64,000 nucleotides of DNA from Escherichia coli. Its GTDB lineage: Bacteria; Pseudomonadota; Gammaproteobacteria; Enterobacterales; Enterobacteriaceae. The notes beneath the pieces are model-generated. The model was not told the origin of the DNA and did not search any database. It saw only the letters and a program-made list of their open reading frames with translations. The stretch lies in NCBI RefSeq assembly GCF_044324785.1, contig NZ_CP172127.1, one strand, 5' to 3'. This document shows, piece after piece, positions 3,078 to 60,499 of the stretch. Position 1 is the first letter of the stretch. Every line of letters starts with the position of its first letter. Both the position numbers and the translations under genes were made by a program.

Positions 3078-3284
3078 GGGTAGTTAATATCCTGATTTAG
3101 CGAAAAATTAAGCATTCAATACGGGTATTGTGGCATGTTTAACCGTTCAGTTGAAGGTTGCGCCTACACTAAGCATAGTTGTTGATGAATTTTTCAATAT
3201 CGCCATGGCTTTCAATTATATTTGAAATTTTGTAAAATATTTTTAGTAGCTTAAATGTGATTCAACATCACTGGAGAAAGTCTT

Positions 3285-4274
3285 ATGAAACTCGCCGTTT
3301 ATAGCACAAAACAGTACGACAAGAAGTACCTGCAACAGGTGAACGAGTCCTTTGGCTTTGAGCTGGAATTTTTTGACTTTCTGCTGACGGAAAAAACCGC
3401 TAAAACGGCCAATGGCTGCGAAGCGGTATGTATTTTCGTAAACGATGACGGCAGCCGCCCGGTGCTGGAAGAGCTGAAAAAGCACGGCGTTAAATATATC
3501 GCCCTGCGCTGTGCCGGTTTCAATAACGTCGACCTTGACGCGGCAAAAGAACTGGGGCTGAAAGTAGTCCGTGTTCCAGCCTATGATCCAGAAGCCGTTG
3601 CTGAACACGCCATCGGTATGATGATGACGCTGAACCGCCGTATTCATCGCGCGTATCAGCGTACTCGTGACGCCAACTTCTCTCTGGAAGGTCTGACCGG
3701 CTTTACTATGTATGGCAAAACGGCAGGCGTTATCGGTACCGGTAAAATCGGTGTGGCGATGCTGCGCATTCTGAAAGGTTTTGGTATGCGTCTGCTGGCG
3801 TTCGATCCGTATCCAAGTGCGGCGGCACTGGAACTCGGTGTGGAGTATGTCGATCTGCCAACCCTGTTCTCTGAATCAGACGTTATCTCTCTGCACTGCC
3901 CGCTGACACCGGAAAACTACCATCTGTTGAACGAAGCCGCCTTTGATCAGATGAAAAATGGCGTGATGATCGTCAATACCAGTCGCGGTGCATTGATTGA
4001 TTCTCAGGCGGCAATTGAAGCGCTGAAAAATCAGAAAATTGGTTCGTTGGGTATGGACGTGTATGAGAACGAACGCGATCTGTTCTTTGAAGACAAATCC
4101 AACGACGTGATCCAGGATGACGTATTCCGTCGTCTGTCTGCCTGCCACAACGTGCTGTTTACCGGGCACCAGGCATTCCTGACAGCAGAAGCACTGACCA
4201 GTATTTCTCAGACTACGCTGCAAAACTTAAGCAATCTGGAAAAAGGCGAAACCAGCCCGAACGAACTGGTTTAA
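3285..4274 (+). CDS. ldhA: fermentative D-lactate dehydrogenase, NAD-dependent (329 aa)
   Basis: 329 aa; D-2-hydroxyacid dehydrogenase NAD-binding motif GVIGTGKIG; begins MKLAVYSTKQYDKKYL. Confidence 0.95.
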   Translation: MKLAVYSTKQYDKKYLQQVNESFGFELEFFDFLLTEKTAKTANGCEAVCIFVNDDGSRPVLEELKKHGVKYIALRCAGFNNVDLDAAKELGLKVVRVPAYDPEAVAEHAIGMMMTLNRRIHRAYQRTRDANFSLEGLTGFTMYGKTAGVIGTGKIGVAMLRILKGFGMRLLAFDPYPSAAALELGVEYVDLPTLFSESDVISLHCPLTPENYHLLNEAAFDQMKNGVMIVNTSRGALIDSQAAIEALKNQKIGSLGMDVYENERDLFFEDKSNDVIQDDVFRRLSACHNVLFTGHQAFLTAEALTSISQTTLQNLSNLEKGETSPNELV

Positions 4275-29433: not shown

Positions 29434-30465
29434 ATGATCGCTGAACTGTTTACAAATAATGCGCTTAATCTGGTCATTATTTTCGGTAGCTGCGCAGCAT
29501 TGATTCTGATGAGCTTTTGGTTTCGCCGCGGAAATCGTAAAAGAAAAGGTTTTTTATTCCATGCGGTGCAATTTTTAATCTACACCATAATTATCAGTGC
29601 TGTTGGTAGCATCATTAATTATGTTATAGAAAACTATAAACTCAAATTTATCACCCCAGGCGTTATCGATTTTATCTGTACGTCCCTGATTGCGGTTATT
29701 CTGACGATTAAGCTATTTCTGCTGATTAATCAGTTTGAAAAACAGCAGATTAAAAAAGGTCGCGATATCACCAGTGCGCGGATTATGTCGCGTATCATCA
29801 AAATCACCATTATTGTGGTGCTTGTTCTGCTTTATGGCGAACATTTCGGCATGAGCCTTTCTGGCTTGTTGACCTTTGGTGGTATTGGTGGTCTGGCTGT
29901 CGGTATGGCCGGTAAAGATATTCTGAGTAACTTCTTTTCCGGGATTATGCTCTATTTCGACCGTCCTTTTAGTATTGGCGACTGGATCCGTTCACCGGAC
30001 AGAAATATCGAAGGTACAGTAGCGGAAATTGGCTGGCGAATTACCAAAATTACGACCTTTGATAATCGTCCATTGTACGTACCGAACTCGCTGTTTTCGT
30101 CAATCAGCGTAGAAAACCCTGGACGAATGACCAACCGGCGCATTACCACGACCATTGGTTTACGTTATGAGGATGCGGCAAAAGTGGGCGCTATTGTCGA
30201 AGCCGTACGTGAGATGCTGAAAAATCACCCGGCCATCGACCAGCGACAAACCCTACTGGTTTATTTCAACCAGTTTGCTGACTCTTCATTGAATATTATG
30301 GTTTATTGCTTTACCAAAACCACGGTATGGGCTGAATGGCTTGCTGCACAGCAAGACGTTTATTTGAAGATTATCGATATTGTACAGTCACACGACGCGG
30401 ACTTTGCCTTCCCCAGCCAGACGCTGTATATGGATAACATTACACCGCCGGACCAGGGTCGCTAA
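29434..30465 (+). CDS. ynaI: MscS-family mechanosensitive channel YnaI (343 aa)
   Basis: 343 aa; N-terminal TM helices followed by MscS beta domain. Confidence 0.9.
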
Positions 30466-52535: not shown

Positions 52536-53093
52536 TTAAAACGTGGTGGGCGTATGGGCGCTGATAATTCGGCAAATACCTGCCGACGTATTACTGAAAC
52601 TGTGCGGGATGCCGGTATTAATGGCATAACTTTGCCCCGCGACGAGGTGGTAATCCTGACCATTAATCGTCAGAACAATTTCACCTTCCAGTACAGTGCC
52701 TATTTCCTCACCCTGATGCTTAATTCTTTCCCCAGTGGTTGTGCCCGGCTGGTAAGTTTCAAAGATCATCGCCAGCGTGCGATTCGGGTTACCGTTATGA
52801 ACCAGCTTCATTGACACACCCTGACTGCCCATCTCAATTAAGTCGTCCTGATTAATGACGACCTGCGGCTCATCAGGTTTTTCCGGCTCGGAAAAGAATT
52901 CCGAGAGTGACAGACCATACACCTTCAGCAGCTTTTGCAGCGTACTTATGGCAGGGCTGACTTTATCTTGTTCTATCGTACTGATAGCACTGTGAGTCAG
53001 CCCGGAGAGTTCGGCGGCACGACGTTGTGAAAGCCCCTGCTGCTGGCGGATTTCCGACAAGCGTTTTCCTGGCGCCAGTCCCTCATCACTCAT
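52536..53093 (-). CDS. puuR: repressor PuuR, HTH_XRE plus cupin (185 aa)
   Basis: 185 aa; N-terminal Xre-type HTH. Confidence 0.9.
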   Translation of the reverse strand: MSDEGLAPGKRLSEIRQQQGLSQRRAAELSGLTHSAISTIEQDKVSPAISTLQKLLKVYGLSLSEFFSEPEKPDEPQVVINQDDLIEMGSQGVSMKLVHNGNPNRTLAMIFETYQPGTTTGERIKHQGEEIGTVLEGEIVLTINGQDYHLVAGQSYAINTGIPHSFSNTSAGICRIISAHTPTTF

Positions 53094-53119: not shown

Positions 53120-53884
53120 TCAGAGTCGCTGTTTTTCAGCGATATGGTGCTGACAAGCGGTGATAAAGCCCTCGAACAATATACGCGAAAGCGCGTACTC
53201 GCTACTGTTCCATTCCGGGTGCCACTGTACGCCCAGCGCAAAAGGATGATTGATGACGCTAACCGCCTCAACTAAGCCATCCGGCGAGCGAGCTTCAACA
53301 CGCAACCGTGGGCTAACGACCTTCGCCCCTTGTCCATGCAGAGAGTTTACCCAAAAGTTGCTACATTCAGGTAACAACGCAGACAGTAATCCCCCCTCTT
53401 CAACCAGAACTTCATGCGACGGCGCATATTGCTGCTCCACCGGCAGTTCGGGATCTTCCCGATGTTCCAGCAATTCAGGCTGTTCGCACAGCTTGCGATG
53501 CAACGAACCACCGGTTGCCACCACCAGTTCCTGTAAACCCCGGCAGATGGCGAAAATGGGGATGCGCCTTTCGAGTGCGGCATTAATTAACGCCATGCTC
53601 AGAAGATCACGCCCAGGATCGGCGTCAGGCTCATCGCCGTTTTCACCATATAGGTGCGGCTGCACATTGCTGGGACTACCAGGAAGATAAATACCATCGA
53701 GTTTCGGCAAAAGTTGTTCAAGTAATGACGGTTCCGCCAGCGCATGTGGCAGCGCAATTGGCAAGCCGCCTGCGTGGATGATGGCATTCAGGTACTTTTC
53801 TTGCAGAGTCTGGGTCGCATGACCCTTAAGCCTGTTCCTGCACATTACGACACCGATAACCGGATTGTTCATTATATTTTCCAT
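53120..53884 (-). CDS. puuD: gamma-glutamyl-GABA hydrolase PuuD, class-I glutamine amidotransferase (254 aa)
   Basis: ORF track 53120..53896 trimmed to MENIMNNPVIG; nucleophile Cys in AICRGLQ. Confidence 0.9.
   Translation of the reverse strand: MENIMNNPVIGVVMCRNRLKGHATQTLQEKYLNAIIHAGGLPIALPHALAEPSLLEQLLPKLDGIYLPGSPSNVQPHLYGENGDEPDADPGRDLLSMALINAALERRIPIFAICRGLQELVVATGGSLHRKLCEQPELLEHREDPELPVEQQYAPSHEVLVEEGGLLSALLPECSNFWVNSLHGQGAKVVSPRLRVEARSPDGLVEAVSVINHPFALGVQWHPEWNSSEYALSRILFEGFITACQHHIAEKQRL
53866..53880. promoter_or_regulatory. PuuR-box candidate 1 (overlaps the first codons of puuD)
   Basis: minus-strand AAAATATAATGAACA; first of three repeated 15-mers in the puuD/puuA region. Confidence 0.6.
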
Positions 53885-53942
53885 GCTCAATCTCACAAAG
53901 TGGACTAAATTATCGCCATTACTGCGCTTTAAATGACCTTTA

Positions 53943-53957
53943 TGTTCAATATTTTTT
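53943..53957. promoter_or_regulatory. PuuR-box candidate 2
   Basis: minus-strand AAAAAATATTGAACA. Confidence 0.55.
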
Positions 53958-54037
53958 CAATCTAGCAGTGGGTTTTCATTTTTGCAAACTCAATTTAACA
54001 TTTGACAAACATTTAGTTTGCATACAGATTCGAATGG

Positions 54038-54052
54038 TGGTCATTATATTTT
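54038..54052. promoter_or_regulatory. PuuR-box candidate 3
   Basis: minus-strand AAAATATAATGACCA. Confidence 0.55.
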
Positions 54053-54095
54053 ACGCTTTGATAACGAGCGGAAAACAAACCAAAGGCGAAGAATC

Positions 54096-55514
54096 ATGGA
54101 AACCAATATCGTTGAAGTAGAGAACTTTGTTCAGCAGTCAGAAGAGAGGCGGGGTAGCGCCTTTACGCAGGAAGTGAAACGCTACCTGGAGCGCTACCCG
54201 AATACGCAATATGTTGATGTTTTACTTACCGATTTAAATGGTTGCTTCCGTGGAAAACGTATTCCTGTTTCAAGCCTGAAGAAGCTCGAGAAAGGGTGTT
54301 ATTTCCCGGCCTCGGTATTTGCAATGGATATTCTGGGCAACGTAGTAGAAGAAGCGGGTCTGGGTCAGGAAATGGGCGAACCGGATCGTACCTGTGTTCC
54401 TGTTCTCGGTTCCTTAACCCCTTCTGCCGCCGATCCAGAGTTTATCGGTCAGATGCTCCTGACCATGGTCGATGAAGATGGCGCTCCCTTTGACGTTGAG
54501 CCGCGGAACGTTCTTAACCGCCTGTGGCAGCAGCTGCGCCAGCGCGGATTGTTCCCGGTCGTAGCGGTAGAGCTGGAGTTCTATTTACTGGATCGCCAGC
54601 GCGACGCTGAAGGGTATCTGCAACCGCCCTGCGCGCCTGGCACCGATGACCGCAATACACAAAGCCAGGTTTACTCCGTTGATAACCTCAACCACTTCGC
54701 CGACGTGCTCAATGATATTGATGAGCTGGCGCAGTTACAGCTGATTCCGGCAGATGGCGCGGTCGCCGAGGCCTCGCCAGGTCAGTTTGAAATCAATCTT
54801 TACCATACCGATAACGTGCTGGAAGCTTGCGATGATGCGCTGGCACTAAAACGCCTGGTGCGTCTGATGGCAGAAAAGCATAAGATGCACGCCACTTTTA
54901 TGGCGAAGCCGTATGAAGAGCACGCGGGCAGCGGGATGCATATCCATATCAGTATGCAAAATAATCGTGGCGAGAACGTGCTTTCTGACGCGGAAGGCGA
55001 AGATTCGCCGCTGCTGAAAAAGATGCTCGCCGGGATGATTGACCTGATGCCGTCATCAATGGCGTTGCTGGCACCAAACGTGAACTCGTATCGCCGCTTC
55101 CAGCCGGGAATGTATGTGCCGACGCAGGCGTCGTGGGGCCATAACAACCGCACCGTTGCCCTGCGTATTCCGTGCGGCGATCGTCATAATCACCGCGTGG
55201 AATATCGCGTGGCGGGTGCCGATGCCAACCCATATCTGGTGATGGCAGCGATTTTTGCCGGTATTTTGCATGGCCTTGATAACGAGCTGCCGTTGCAGGA
55301 AGAAGTCGAAGGCAACGGGCTGGAACAGGAAGGCTTACCCTTCCCGATTCGCCAGAGCGATGCCCTGGGTGAGTTTATCGAGAATGATCACCTGCGCCGC
55401 TATTTAGGCGAACGCTTCTGCCATGTCTATCACGCCTGTAAAAATGATGAGCTGTTGCAGTTTGAGCGCCTCATCACAGAAACAGAAATTGAGTGGATGT
55501 TGAAAAACGCGTAA
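54096..55514 (+). CDS. puuA: gamma-glutamylputrescine synthetase PuuA, glutamine-synthetase family (472 aa)
   Basis: ORF track 54018..55514 trimmed to METNIVEVENF. Confidence 0.95.
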   Translation: METNIVEVENFVQQSEERRGSAFTQEVKRYLERYPNTQYVDVLLTDLNGCFRGKRIPVSSLKKLEKGCYFPASVFAMDILGNVVEEAGLGQEMGEPDRTCVPVLGSLTPSAADPEFIGQMLLTMVDEDGAPFDVEPRNVLNRLWQQLRQRGLFPVVAVELEFYLLDRQRDAEGYLQPPCAPGTDDRNTQSQVYSVDNLNHFADVLNDIDELAQLQLIPADGAVAEASPGQFEINLYHTDNVLEACDDALALKRLVRLMAEKHKMHATFMAKPYEEHAGSGMHIHISMQNNRGENVLSDAEGEDSPLLKKMLAGMIDLMPSSMALLAPNVNSYRRFQPGMYVPTQASWGHNNRTVALRIPCGDRHNHRVEYRVAGADANPYLVMAAIFAGILHGLDNELPLQEEVEGNGLEQEGLPFPIRQSDALGEFIENDHLRRYLGERFCHVYHACKNDELLQFERLITETEIEWMLKNA

Positions 55515-57893: not shown

Positions 57894-59537
57894 ATGCGCC
57901 AGGTATTATCGTCTCTTTTGGTGATTGCTGGACTTGTGAGTGGTCAGGCAATCGCCGCGCCTGAATCCCCCCCGCATGCTGATATCCGCGACAGCGGTTT
58001 TGTCTATTGCGTTAGCGGGCAAGTCAACACCTTTAACCCATCCAAAGCGAGCAGTGGGTTAATTGTCGATACCCTTGCCGCCCAGTTTTATGATCGACTG
58101 CTGGATGTCGATCCCTATACCTATCGCCTGATGCCGGAACTTGCCGAAAGCTGGGAAGTTCTCGACAACGGCGCGACCTATCGCTTCCACCTGCGTCGCG
58201 ATGTTCCGTTTCAAAAAACCGACTGGTTTACTCCCACTCGTAAAATGAATGCCGACGATGTGGTGTTTACCTTCCAGCGAATTTTTGACCGCAACAACCC
58301 GTGGCATAACGTCAACGGCAGCAACTTCCCCTACTTCGACAGCCTGCAATTTGCCGATAACGTGAAAAGCGTCCGCAAACTGGATAATCATACGGTTGAG
58401 TTCCGACTCGCCCAGCCGGATGCTTCTTTTTTGTGGCACCTGGCGACCCATTATGCATCGGTCATGTCGGCAGAATATGCCGGGAAGTTAGAGAAAGAAG
58501 ATCGCCAGGAACAACTCGACCGTCAACCGGTTGGCACCGGTCCGTATCAGTTGTCGGAATACCGCGCCGGGCAATTTATTCGCTTACAACGTCATGATGA
58601 TTTCTGGCGTGGTAAGCCGTTGATGCCACAAGTGGTGGTGGATTTAGGCTCTGGCGGTACAGGACGATTGTCGAAACTCCTGACCGGGGAGTGCGACGTT
58701 CTGGCCTGGCCTGCTGCCAGTCAGCTATCCATTTTGCGTGACGACCCACGCTTGCGTTTAACGCTGCGTCCTGGGATGAACGTCGCCTATCTGGCATTTA
58801 ACACCGCCAAGCCGCCGCTAAATAATCCCGCTGTCCGCCATGCGCTGGCACTGGCGATCAATAACCAGCGTCTGATGCAATCCATCTATTATGGTACGGC
58901 TGAAACGGCAGCCTCTATTTTACCGCGCGCCTCGTGGGCCTATGACAACGAGGCTAAAATTACTGAATACAATCCGGCGAAATCGCGCGAACAGTTGAAG
59001 GCGTTGGGGCTGGAAAACTTAACGCTGAAACTGTGGGTGCCAACACGTTCGCAGGCGTGGAACCCCAGTCCACTGAAAACCGCCGAACTGATTCAGGCGG
59101 ATATGGCACAGGTTGGCGTAAAAGTGGTGATTGTGCCGGTAGAAGGTCGCTTTCAGGAGGCGCGGTTGATGGATATGAGCCATGATCTGACGTTATCCGG
59201 TTGGGCGACTGACAGTAACGACCCGGACAGTTTCTTCCGTCCGTTACTGAGCTGCGCAGCAATTCATTCGCAGACCAACCTCGCCCACTGGTGCGATCCG
59301 AAATTCGACAGCGTGTTGCGTAAGGCGCTCTCCTCGCAGCAGCTGGCGGCGCGTATTGAAGCCTATGACGAAGCGCAAAGTATTCTGGCGCAGGAATTAC
59401 CTATTCTGCCGCTGGCGTCGTCATTGCGTTTGCAGGCCTATCGGTACGATATCAAAGGTCTGGTACTTAGTCCGTTTGGTAACGCCTCCTTTGCTGGGGT
59501 GTATCGCGAGAAACAGGATGAGGTGAAAAAACCATGA
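57894..59537 (+). CDS. sapA: periplasmic peptide-binding protein SapA (547 aa)
   Basis: signal peptide; family-5 solute-binding protein. Confidence 0.95.
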
Positions 59538-60499
59538 TTATCTTCACCTTACGCCGCATTTTGTTATTGATTGTCACCTTGTTCCTGCTGACCTTCGTTG
59601 GCTTCAGTTTGAGCTATTTCACTCCACACGCGCCGTTACAAGGCGCGTCACTGTGGAATGCCTGGGTGTTCTGGTTTAATGGCCTGATCCACTGGGATTT
59701 TGGTGTTTCCAGCATTAACGGTCAACCAATTGCCGAACAGTTAAAAGAGGTCTTCCCGGCGACGATGGAACTGTGCATCCTCGCCTTCGGTTTTGCGCTG
59801 ATTGTTGGCATCCCCGTGGGGATGATTGCCGGGATTACGCGCCATAAGTGGCAGGATAACTTGATCAACGCCATCGCCTTACTGGGCTTTTCAATCCCGG
59901 TGTTCTGGCTGGCGCTTCTGTTGACGCTGTTTTGTTCACTCACGCTAGGTTGGTTGCCCGTTTCAGGGCGTTTCGATCTGCTCTACGAAGTGAAACCGAT
60001 TACCGGTTTTGCGTTGATTGATGCCTGGCTTTCGGACTCACCATGGCGGGATGAAATGGTCATGAGCGCAATCCGCCATATGATATTGCCCGTGATCACC
60101 CTGTCGGTTGCGCCAACAACTGAAGTGATCCGACTGATGCGTATCAGCACTATCGAAGTGTATGACCAGAACTATGTTAAAGCAGCGGCGACCCGCGGTT
60201 TGTCGCGCTTTACTATTTTGCGTCGCCACGTTCTGCATAACGCGTTACCTCCGGTTATTCCTCGCCTGGGCTTACAGTTTTCTACCATGCTGACGCTGGC
60301 GATGATCACCGAAATGGTTTTTAGCTGGCCGGGTTTAGGCCGCTGGTTAATTAACGCTATCCGCCAGCAGGATTACGCAGCCATTTCCGCCGGAGTGATG
60401 GTGTGTGGCTCACTGGTCATTATTGTTAACGTGATTTCTGATATTTTGGGTGCCATGGCTAACCCTCTGAAACATAAGGAATGGTATGCCTTACGATAG
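59534..60499 (+). CDS. sapB: ABC permease SapB (321 aa)
   Basis: overlaps sapA stop; polytopic permease. Confidence 0.95.

Follow-up and report, generated by a model that had tools for sequence, protein, structure and literature searches.

Probable operator boxes of the putrescine-responsive repressor PuuR in the puuA–puuD divergon of Escherichia coli

The puuA/puuD locus and its three repeats

The control region studied here separates two divergently transcribed operons, puuAP and puuDRCBE, and lies within a 64 kb stretch of Escherichia coli DNA, the whole of which was analysed and is called the window below (genes and regulatory features are listed in Table 1). The start codon of puuD occupies positions 53884–53882 and the puuA ATG begins at 54096, leaving a spacer of 211 bp (53885–54095) with a G+C content of 34%. 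When the window was compared with E. coli genomes, the puuD/puuA region proved to be 99.9–100% identical in thousands of them, and the puuA–puuD intergenic sequence is identical to that of K-12 MG1655. The product of puuR carries an HTH_3 domain (residues 13–66, 6.4e-15) followed by a Cupin_2 domain (residues 111–178, 6.3e-19), that is, the N-terminal XRE-type HTH and C-terminal cupin sensor domain characteristic of the XRE-cupin repressors.

Some variation in the presence and annotation of the locus is also observed. Of 5426 complete E. coli genomes, 4371 carry the segment 53840–54140 with the puuD/puuA control region (4298 of them at an identity of at least 99%), compared to 5412 that carry the ldhA region of this window; the puuD–puuA junction therefore appears to be missing from roughly one genome in five. 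In Klebsiella pneumoniae puuD is annotated as a gene of 753 nt, compared to 765 nt in E. coli, its start being placed at the next in-frame ATG, that of codon 5 (53870–53872 in the window, within box 1). In many genera codon 5 is TTT, so that it is the first ATG that is conserved as the start.

Table 1. Genes, promoters and candidate regulatory sites of the puuD/puuA region (positions in the window; boxes 1–3 are the very probable PuuR boxes discussed in the text)
Feature	Position	Strand	Description
puuR	52536..53093	-	Repressor gene (K-12 annotation); HTH_3 + Cupin_2; directly downstream of puuD
puuD	53120..53884	-	Gamma-glutamyl-GABA hydrolase; Peptidase_C26; first gene of the puuDRCBE operon
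Box 1	53866..53880	-	AAAATATAATGAACA, exact match; + strand reads TGTTCATTATATTTT; 18-mer reading (- strand) TGGAAAATATAATGAACA, 53883..53866
Candidate fourth, weak PuuR site	53901..53918	.	TGGCGATAATTTAGTCCA on -; ACTAAATTATCGCCA on + at 53904–53918; +35..+52 of the puuD transcript
Box 2	53943..53957	-	AAAAAATATTGAACA, 2 mismatches to AAAATATAATGAACA; + strand reads TGTTCAATATTTTTT; 18-mer reading (- strand) 53960..53943
puuD promoter	53952..53987	-	-35 TTGCAA (53987..53982), 17-nt spacer, extended -10 TGcTAGATT (53967..53959), +1 A at 53952
Conserved central block	53983..54022	.	AAATGTTTGTCAAATGTTAAATTGAGTTTGCA on -; between two back-to-back -35 hexamers; 26/40 columns at least 85% conserved
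Predicted puuA promoter	54002..54030	+	-35 TTGACA (54002–54007), 17-nt spacer, -10 CAGATT (54025–54030), start near 54037; from sequence reading and conservation
Box 3	54038..54052	-	AAAATATAATGACCA, 1 mismatch to AAAATATAATGAACA; + strand reads TGGTCATTATATTTT; 18-mer reading (- strand) 54055..54038
puuA	54096..55514	+	Glutamate-putrescine ligase; Gln-synt_C; first gene of the puuAP operon

The word AAAATATAATGAACA is what we take to be the PuuR consensus, as quoted in EcoCyc and RegulonDB from the 2012 work of Nemoto et al., and that work (J Bacteriol 194:3437) is said to describe where PuuR binds its operators in E. coli K-12. Three 15-mers of this type on one strand, at 53866–53880, 53943–53957 and 54038–54052, had been pointed out in an earlier note on this DNA, and all three are indeed present, with zero, two and one mismatches, respectively. 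On K-12 NC_000913.3, where a position equals 1415004 minus the window coordinate, box 1 corresponds to 1361124–1361138, box 2 to 1361047–1361061, box 3 to 1360952–1360966, the candidate fourth site to 1361086–1361103 and the candidates in the central block to 1360993–1361018. A pattern search of both strands of the 64 kb window yields no other matches to AAAATATAATGAACA with at most two mismatches. At up to three mismatches seven matches are found compared to 2.17 expected, a number reached in none of 100 shuffles; the four additional matches, each with three mismatches, are far from the puu genes. For a local test box 1 was used as the query against the 211-bp intergenic region and its dinucleotide-preserving shuffles (n = 20,000). 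As the query was box 1 itself, this test asks for two further copies, and two or more copies with at most two mismatches occur in none of the 20,000 shuffles (mean 0.0055 matches). Hence the three repeats are real and not a product of chance. A scan with a matrix derived from 35 distinct orthologous boxes puts these E. coli sites at ranks 1–3 in the window, with scores of 19.0–19.6 bits, and the next best position at 16.3 bits.

Several weaker matrix matches outside the puu genes were considered and rejected. Two to three of them, including TACTAAAAATATTTTACA and TTTCAAATATAATTGAAA, are located at 3210–3248 upstream of ldhA (ATG at 3286) in the AT-rich ydbH–ldhA intergenic region; they score 12–17 bits, compared to 19–26 bits for the puu boxes over the 15-mer and 18-mer matrices, and probably reflect base composition. 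A match at 3488 was judged to be a chance one, in AT-rich or coding sequence. The matches at 29471–29488 (TACCGAAAATAATGACCA) and 60414–60431 (CGTTAACAATAATGACCA), both on the minus strand and scoring 13.7–16.9 bits with the asymmetric 18-mer matrix, lie inside the plus-strand ORFs 29434–30465 and 59534–60499, have no second site nearby and were likewise assigned to chance.

Positions of the boxes relative to the puuD and puuA promoters

The transcription start of puuD (ycjL) was mapped 68 nt upstream of the ATG, at NC_000913.2 position 1359076, and reported together with the upstream 51-mer (Kim et al., 2012); the same distance of 68 nt was obtained independently by directed 5′ RACE, with GCTAGATT assigned as the –10 and GAGTTTGCA as the –35 element (Mendoza-Vargas et al., 2009). 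As the 51-mer matches 54002..53952 on the minus strand exactly, +1 of puuD is at 53952. The promoter thus placed is of the sigma-70 extended –10 type, having TGn-TAnnnT 7 nt upstream of the mapped start and a –35-like hexamer at a 17-nt spacing. In an alignment of 24 sequences all nine columns of the extended –10 are conserved and invariant across genera, and the presence of this promoter explains the invariant CTGCTAGATTGA block seen in the cross-genus alignment.

Relative to the mapped start, box 2 covers –5..+10, box 1, +73..+87, and box 3, –86..–100. Box 1 extends 18 nt into puuD and spans the last two nucleotides of codon 2, the whole of codons 3–6 and the first nucleotide of codon 7 (M-E-N-I-M-N-N), so that its placement over codons 2–6 in the earlier note is nearly right. 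The proposal made there that binding at box 1 would directly occlude puuD initiation does not hold, as a start 68 nt upstream of the ATG leaves box 1 outside the RNA polymerase footprint. The box able to block puuD initiation directly is box 2, not box 1, because the mapped start, 53952, lies inside it. Moreover, the overlap of box 1 with the start codon has no mechanistic meaning, since PuuR binds DNA and not mRNA, and box 1 would rather be an auxiliary downstream operator.

A transcription start of puuA is absent from both studies (Kim et al., 2012; Mendoza-Vargas et al., 2009). Box 3 is located 44–58 nt upstream of the puuA ATG. If puuA transcription begins near 54037, as the promoter predicted in Table 1 suggests, box 3 covers approximately +2..+16; an alternative –10, TATATT at 54045–54050, is inside box 3. 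Under both promoter readings box 3 would thus overlap the core promoter or the start region of puuA.

No further PuuR boxes scoring above 7.5 bits with the orthologue matrix are found elsewhere in the puu cluster, and none upstream of puuP or puuC; the scan upstream of puuP that had been suggested along with the original observation revealed no box. As there is no PuuR box near the puuP start, PuuR control of puuP, if any, must be exerted by read-through from puuA. A separate puuP start has been reported in the puuA–puuP intergenic region, 146 nt upstream of the puuP ATG (approximately 55671 of the window, plus strand; Kim et al., 2012), and the K-12 annotation also places a small ORF, ymjE, in this gap. 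On the other side of the divergon, puuR is co-transcribed downstream of puuD and is therefore autoregulated via the same boxes.

Conservation of the boxes and the possible shape of the operator

Scanning with PuuR yielded 80 loci in genera from Escherichia to Serratia, Pantoea and Rahnella, of which 59, from Escherichia to Serratia and Pantoea, have divergent puuD and puuA genes separated by a spacer of nearly constant length (210–215 bp in Enterobacteriaceae). The boxes keep fixed offsets from the puuD ATG in these 59 loci: box 1 is always at +4, box 2 is found at –71 to –73 in 55 loci, and box 3, mostly of the form TAAATATAATGTCCA, at –166 to –169 in 57 loci; 13 of 15 columns are at least 85% conserved in box 2, and the same number in box 3. 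In the 24-sequence alignment the box columns are 86–88% identical to E. coli, compared to 47–56% for the spacers between them. Hence the boxes are conserved together with the PuuR orthologues.

Within puuD, the conservation of box 1 extends to synonymous positions. Codon 4 (53873–53875) is the rare isoleucine codon ATA in all 59 loci, codon 3 is NAT in all 59, and codon 5 is TTT in each of the 40 loci where phenylalanine is encoded, while in codons 8 and 10–12 all synonymous alternatives are used and the third positions are free. We also observe that codon 2 always begins with G, though encoding E, G, D or V. The frozen synonymous positions in box 1 point to the DNA word itself being under selection, rather than mRNA structure alone, because ATT, which is equally A/T-rich, never replaces ATA in codon 4.

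A second PuuR-like gene, 77–86% identical, is present in Serratia and Rahnella (scan loci L057–L074 and L075–L080). In Serratia these copies are divergent from a puuA-like gene of the glutamine-synthetase family, with no puuD between them. The near-perfect palindrome TGGGCAATATATTTTCCA, together with ATAAAATATTGACCG, is observed upstream of the second PuuR-like gene (e.g., in L064 at 3803–3817 and 3877–3894, and in L075–L080 near 3194–3211). This looks like a paralogous regulon with the same type of operator, and the occurrence of the motif beside PuuR paralogues links it to the family of regulators rather than to a single promoter.

Boxes 1 and 3 score on the opposite strand too, with a shift of 3 bp, and in other genera box 1 takes the more palindromic form TGGGCAATATATTTGACA, scoring on both strands. 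Together with the palindrome TGGGCAATATATTTTCCA, these features suggest, with moderate support, that the operator is an 18-bp pseudo-palindrome, TGG-N2-AATATATT-N2-CCA, the 15-mer being its better-conserved 15 positions. The strict form of the palindrome was rejected: at up to three mismatches the idealised TGGNNAATATATTNNCCA retrieves the three boxes and two unrelated matches, and this number (5 compared to 3.2 expected) is not significant window-wide, nor is the candidate fourth site reached. Two other readings of the motif were rejected, as a direct repeat, ATTGAA...ATTGAA, fits box 2 only, and an inverted half-site partnering the motif upstream suits boxes 1 and 2 but fails for box 3.

The number of strong boxes found is three, compared to four motifs in the literature, and the other candidates are weak. 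One of them, at 53901–53918, is ranked 14th of approximately 64,000 positions and fourth in the spacer by a symmetrised 18-mer matrix built without it; it forms a positional cluster in the inverted orientation in 48 of 59 loci, and 12 of its 18 columns are at least 85% conserved. A secondary –10 (GATAAT) or a 5′-UTR element is another possible reading of it. Alternative candidates for the fourth motif, both in the central block and on the plus strand, are AAACTCAATTTAACA at 53986–54000 and AACATTTGACAAACA at 53997–54011, with 10 of 15 matching positions each. The centre-to-centre distances are 95 bp between boxes 3 and 2 (approximately 9.0 turns), 42 bp between box 2 and the candidate fourth site (4.0 turns) and 77 bp between boxes 2 and 1 (7.3 turns). 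We tentatively propose, at somewhat less than even odds of being right, that the functional operator is not the asymmetric 15-mer, that the spacer holds four 18-bp pseudo-palindromes, TGGCGATAATTTAGTCCA among them, conserved in Enterobacterales, three of them being in helical phase with centres 95 and 42 bp apart, and that the site inside puuD, by selection at the nucleotide level that keeps the ATA codon invariant, is a dual-use coding and regulatory sequence serving as a downstream auxiliary operator.

Nowhere in the spacer is conservation deeper than in the central block between the –35 hexamers, where TGTTTGTCAAATGTTAA hardly varies among genera. ATGTT direct repeats at an 11-bp spacing are found in this block, which is flanked by a 7-bp inverted repeat, TGCAAAC/GTTTGCA. 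The ArcA consensus GTTAATTAAATGTTA, with TGTTA-type direct repeats at the same spacing, is matched here at 12 of 15 positions (53996–54010, minus strand); two such matches occur in the window compared to 1.94 expected, so that taken on its own the match is at the chance level. Moreover, an ArgR site has been computationally predicted at 54010–54031 (Mendoza-Vargas et al., 2009).

PuuR as the probable regulator, alternative readings and related systems

According to the secondary literature, PuuR binds the puuA–puuD spacer and dissociates from it at high putrescine, the spacer holds four PuuR DNA-binding motifs, and the puuAP and puuDRCBE operons are repressed by PuuR; the same sources describe ArcA and FNR sites in the spacer, as well as putrescine biosensors built on PuuR with a reported dose-response. 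A search for the box sequences in published full texts gave no relevant match, and the reviews and biosensor papers give no box coordinates. A link between the motifs and the sequence is provided by the “full-length” PuuR-responsive promoters designed from four motifs by Zhao et al. (2023), whose primers begin at 53861 (CCGGATTGTTCATTATATTTTCCA) or extend to 53847, slightly past box 1 and within puuD. This primer design gives indirect confirmation that box 1 belongs to the published motifs. In Corynebacterium, the puuD promoter fragment with boxes 1–3 had an ON/OFF ratio of 36, and the fragment 54028..53885, without boxes 1 and 3, a ratio of 6.9 (Zhao et al., 2023); therefore the flanking boxes, removed together and in this heterologous host, add to repression.

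Taken together, the locus identity, secondary literature, reporter design, conservation and co-occurrence with paralogues bear out the central claim of the earlier note, that the 15-mers are PuuR operator boxes of the puuA/puuD divergent region. Its count of three repeats stands as far as the repeats themselves are concerned, but is one short of the four motifs of the secondary literature. We conclude that the three 15-mers are very probably operator boxes of PuuR, a putrescine-responsive XRE-HTH/cupin repressor, acting by the mechanism proposed below. PuuR boxes in this spacer are already known and ordinary.

At low putrescine, PuuR would occupy box 2 over the puuD start (–5..+10) and thereby block RNA polymerase, and PuuR bound to box 3, on the predicted core promoter or start region of puuA, would block puuAP likewise. 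Box 1 may strengthen this repression by cooperative multi-site binding, possibly with looping or as a roadblock, and a weak fourth site would probably contribute to the cooperative binding as well. Binding of putrescine to the cupin domain would then release PuuR, and both puuAP and puuDRCBE, including puuR itself, would be de-repressed. In this scheme, the sequences with their statistics and conservation, their placement against the mapped start and the protein domains come from the present analysis; PuuR binding, the number of four motifs and release by putrescine come from the secondary literature; and where the puuA promoter lies, what box 1 does and which site is the fourth motif are what we infer.

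The boxes are AT-rich, and one may ask whether they are simply features of the divergent promoters, such as TATAAT-like –10 hexamers or UP-like tracts, and not operators. Boxes 1 and 3 do contain a perfect TATAAT on the minus strand, TATATT, which could serve as a –10 of puuA, is read in the reverse complement of box 3, and a promoter consensus scan reports TTGTGA-16-TATAAT at 53898..53871. The last of these, the only promoter-like match of that scan, was rejected, as it would initiate transcription downstream of the puuD ATG, which conflicts with the mapped start. The same applies to the TATAAT of box 1 taken as a –10, whereas the mapped start at 53952 has its own extended –10, TGcTAGATT; moreover, the conserved G-n-M-C-A arm of the boxes is not a –10 feature, and the motif recurs beside PuuR paralogues in other gene contexts. 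We consider this reading extremely improbable. It is also very unlikely that the boxes are bound by another regulator (ArcA, FNR, ArgR or a nucleoid protein) with PuuR binding elsewhere. The ArcA and FNR sites described in the spacer, the predicted ArgR site and the 12/15 ArcA match would fit such a regulator, but the candidate ArcA, FNR and ArgR sites are in the central block and not on the three boxes, which, in addition, co-occur with puuR orthologues and paralogues. Furthermore, the published PuuR sensor constructs are built on motifs reaching box 1, and removal of the flanking boxes decreased PuuR-dependent repression in a host lacking the E. coli regulators.

A narrower doubt concerns box 1 alone, which might be non-functional and retained by coding or translation-initiation constraints at an A/T-rich ORF start, with only boxes 2 and 3 working. 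Its position 73–87 nt downstream of the start site and within codons 2–7, where low mRNA structure is generally favoured, would be in line with that, as would the variation of its right arm with the encoded residues (AATGAACA, AATGTACA, ATTTGACA), and the conservation of box 1 could partly reflect such constraints. Such constraints do not readily account for a box in which ATA is never replaced by ATT in any of 59 loci, AAT never by AAC and TTT never by TTC, while nearby codons vary freely, and which is more palindromic in other genera (TGGGCAATATATTTGACA). As the full-length constructs with box 1 also repress 5-fold better than those lacking boxes 1 and 3, a non-functional box 1 seems unlikely to us, and PuuR binding at all three boxes is the reading we retain.

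PuuR control of the puu divergon is textbook-level knowledge, experimentally characterised and already used in putrescine biosensors, and for this reason the boxes matter little beyond correct annotation. Modest gains are an explicit placement of the boxes against the mapped puuD start and an operator model spanning genera, which could help in biosensor design; box 1 also offers an example of an operator constraining the choice of synonymous codons at a gene start. Minor additions, as read from sequence comparison, are the proposed 18-mer model of the operator, a candidate for the fourth site and the ATA codon frozen within box 1.

The closest known system is that of the PuuR sites of E. coli K-12, with the same organism, an identical spacer and the same adjacent regulator gene; nothing substantive differs, apart from four motifs having been reported there compared to three strong matches here. 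The XRE-cupin repressors of Pseudomonas, PauR, PsdR and relatives, have the same HTH_3 + Cupin_2 architecture as PuuR, and PauR is described as the PuuR homologue (Trouillon et al., 2021, PMC7901475). Like PuuR, they act locally, repressing a neighbouring metabolic operon until a metabolite of the pathway releases them; however, they belong to other genera and control other regulons, and the likeness described here concerns architecture and role. In the lac operon, auxiliary operators O2, inside lacZ, and O3, upstream, raise repression several-fold. The arrangement of the puu divergon may be likened to it, with box 2 as the main operator at the start site and boxes 1 and 3 as auxiliaries, one of them inside the first structural gene. 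The PuuR boxes are, however, much closer together (their centres being 77 and 95 bp apart), and PuuR belongs to another protein family.
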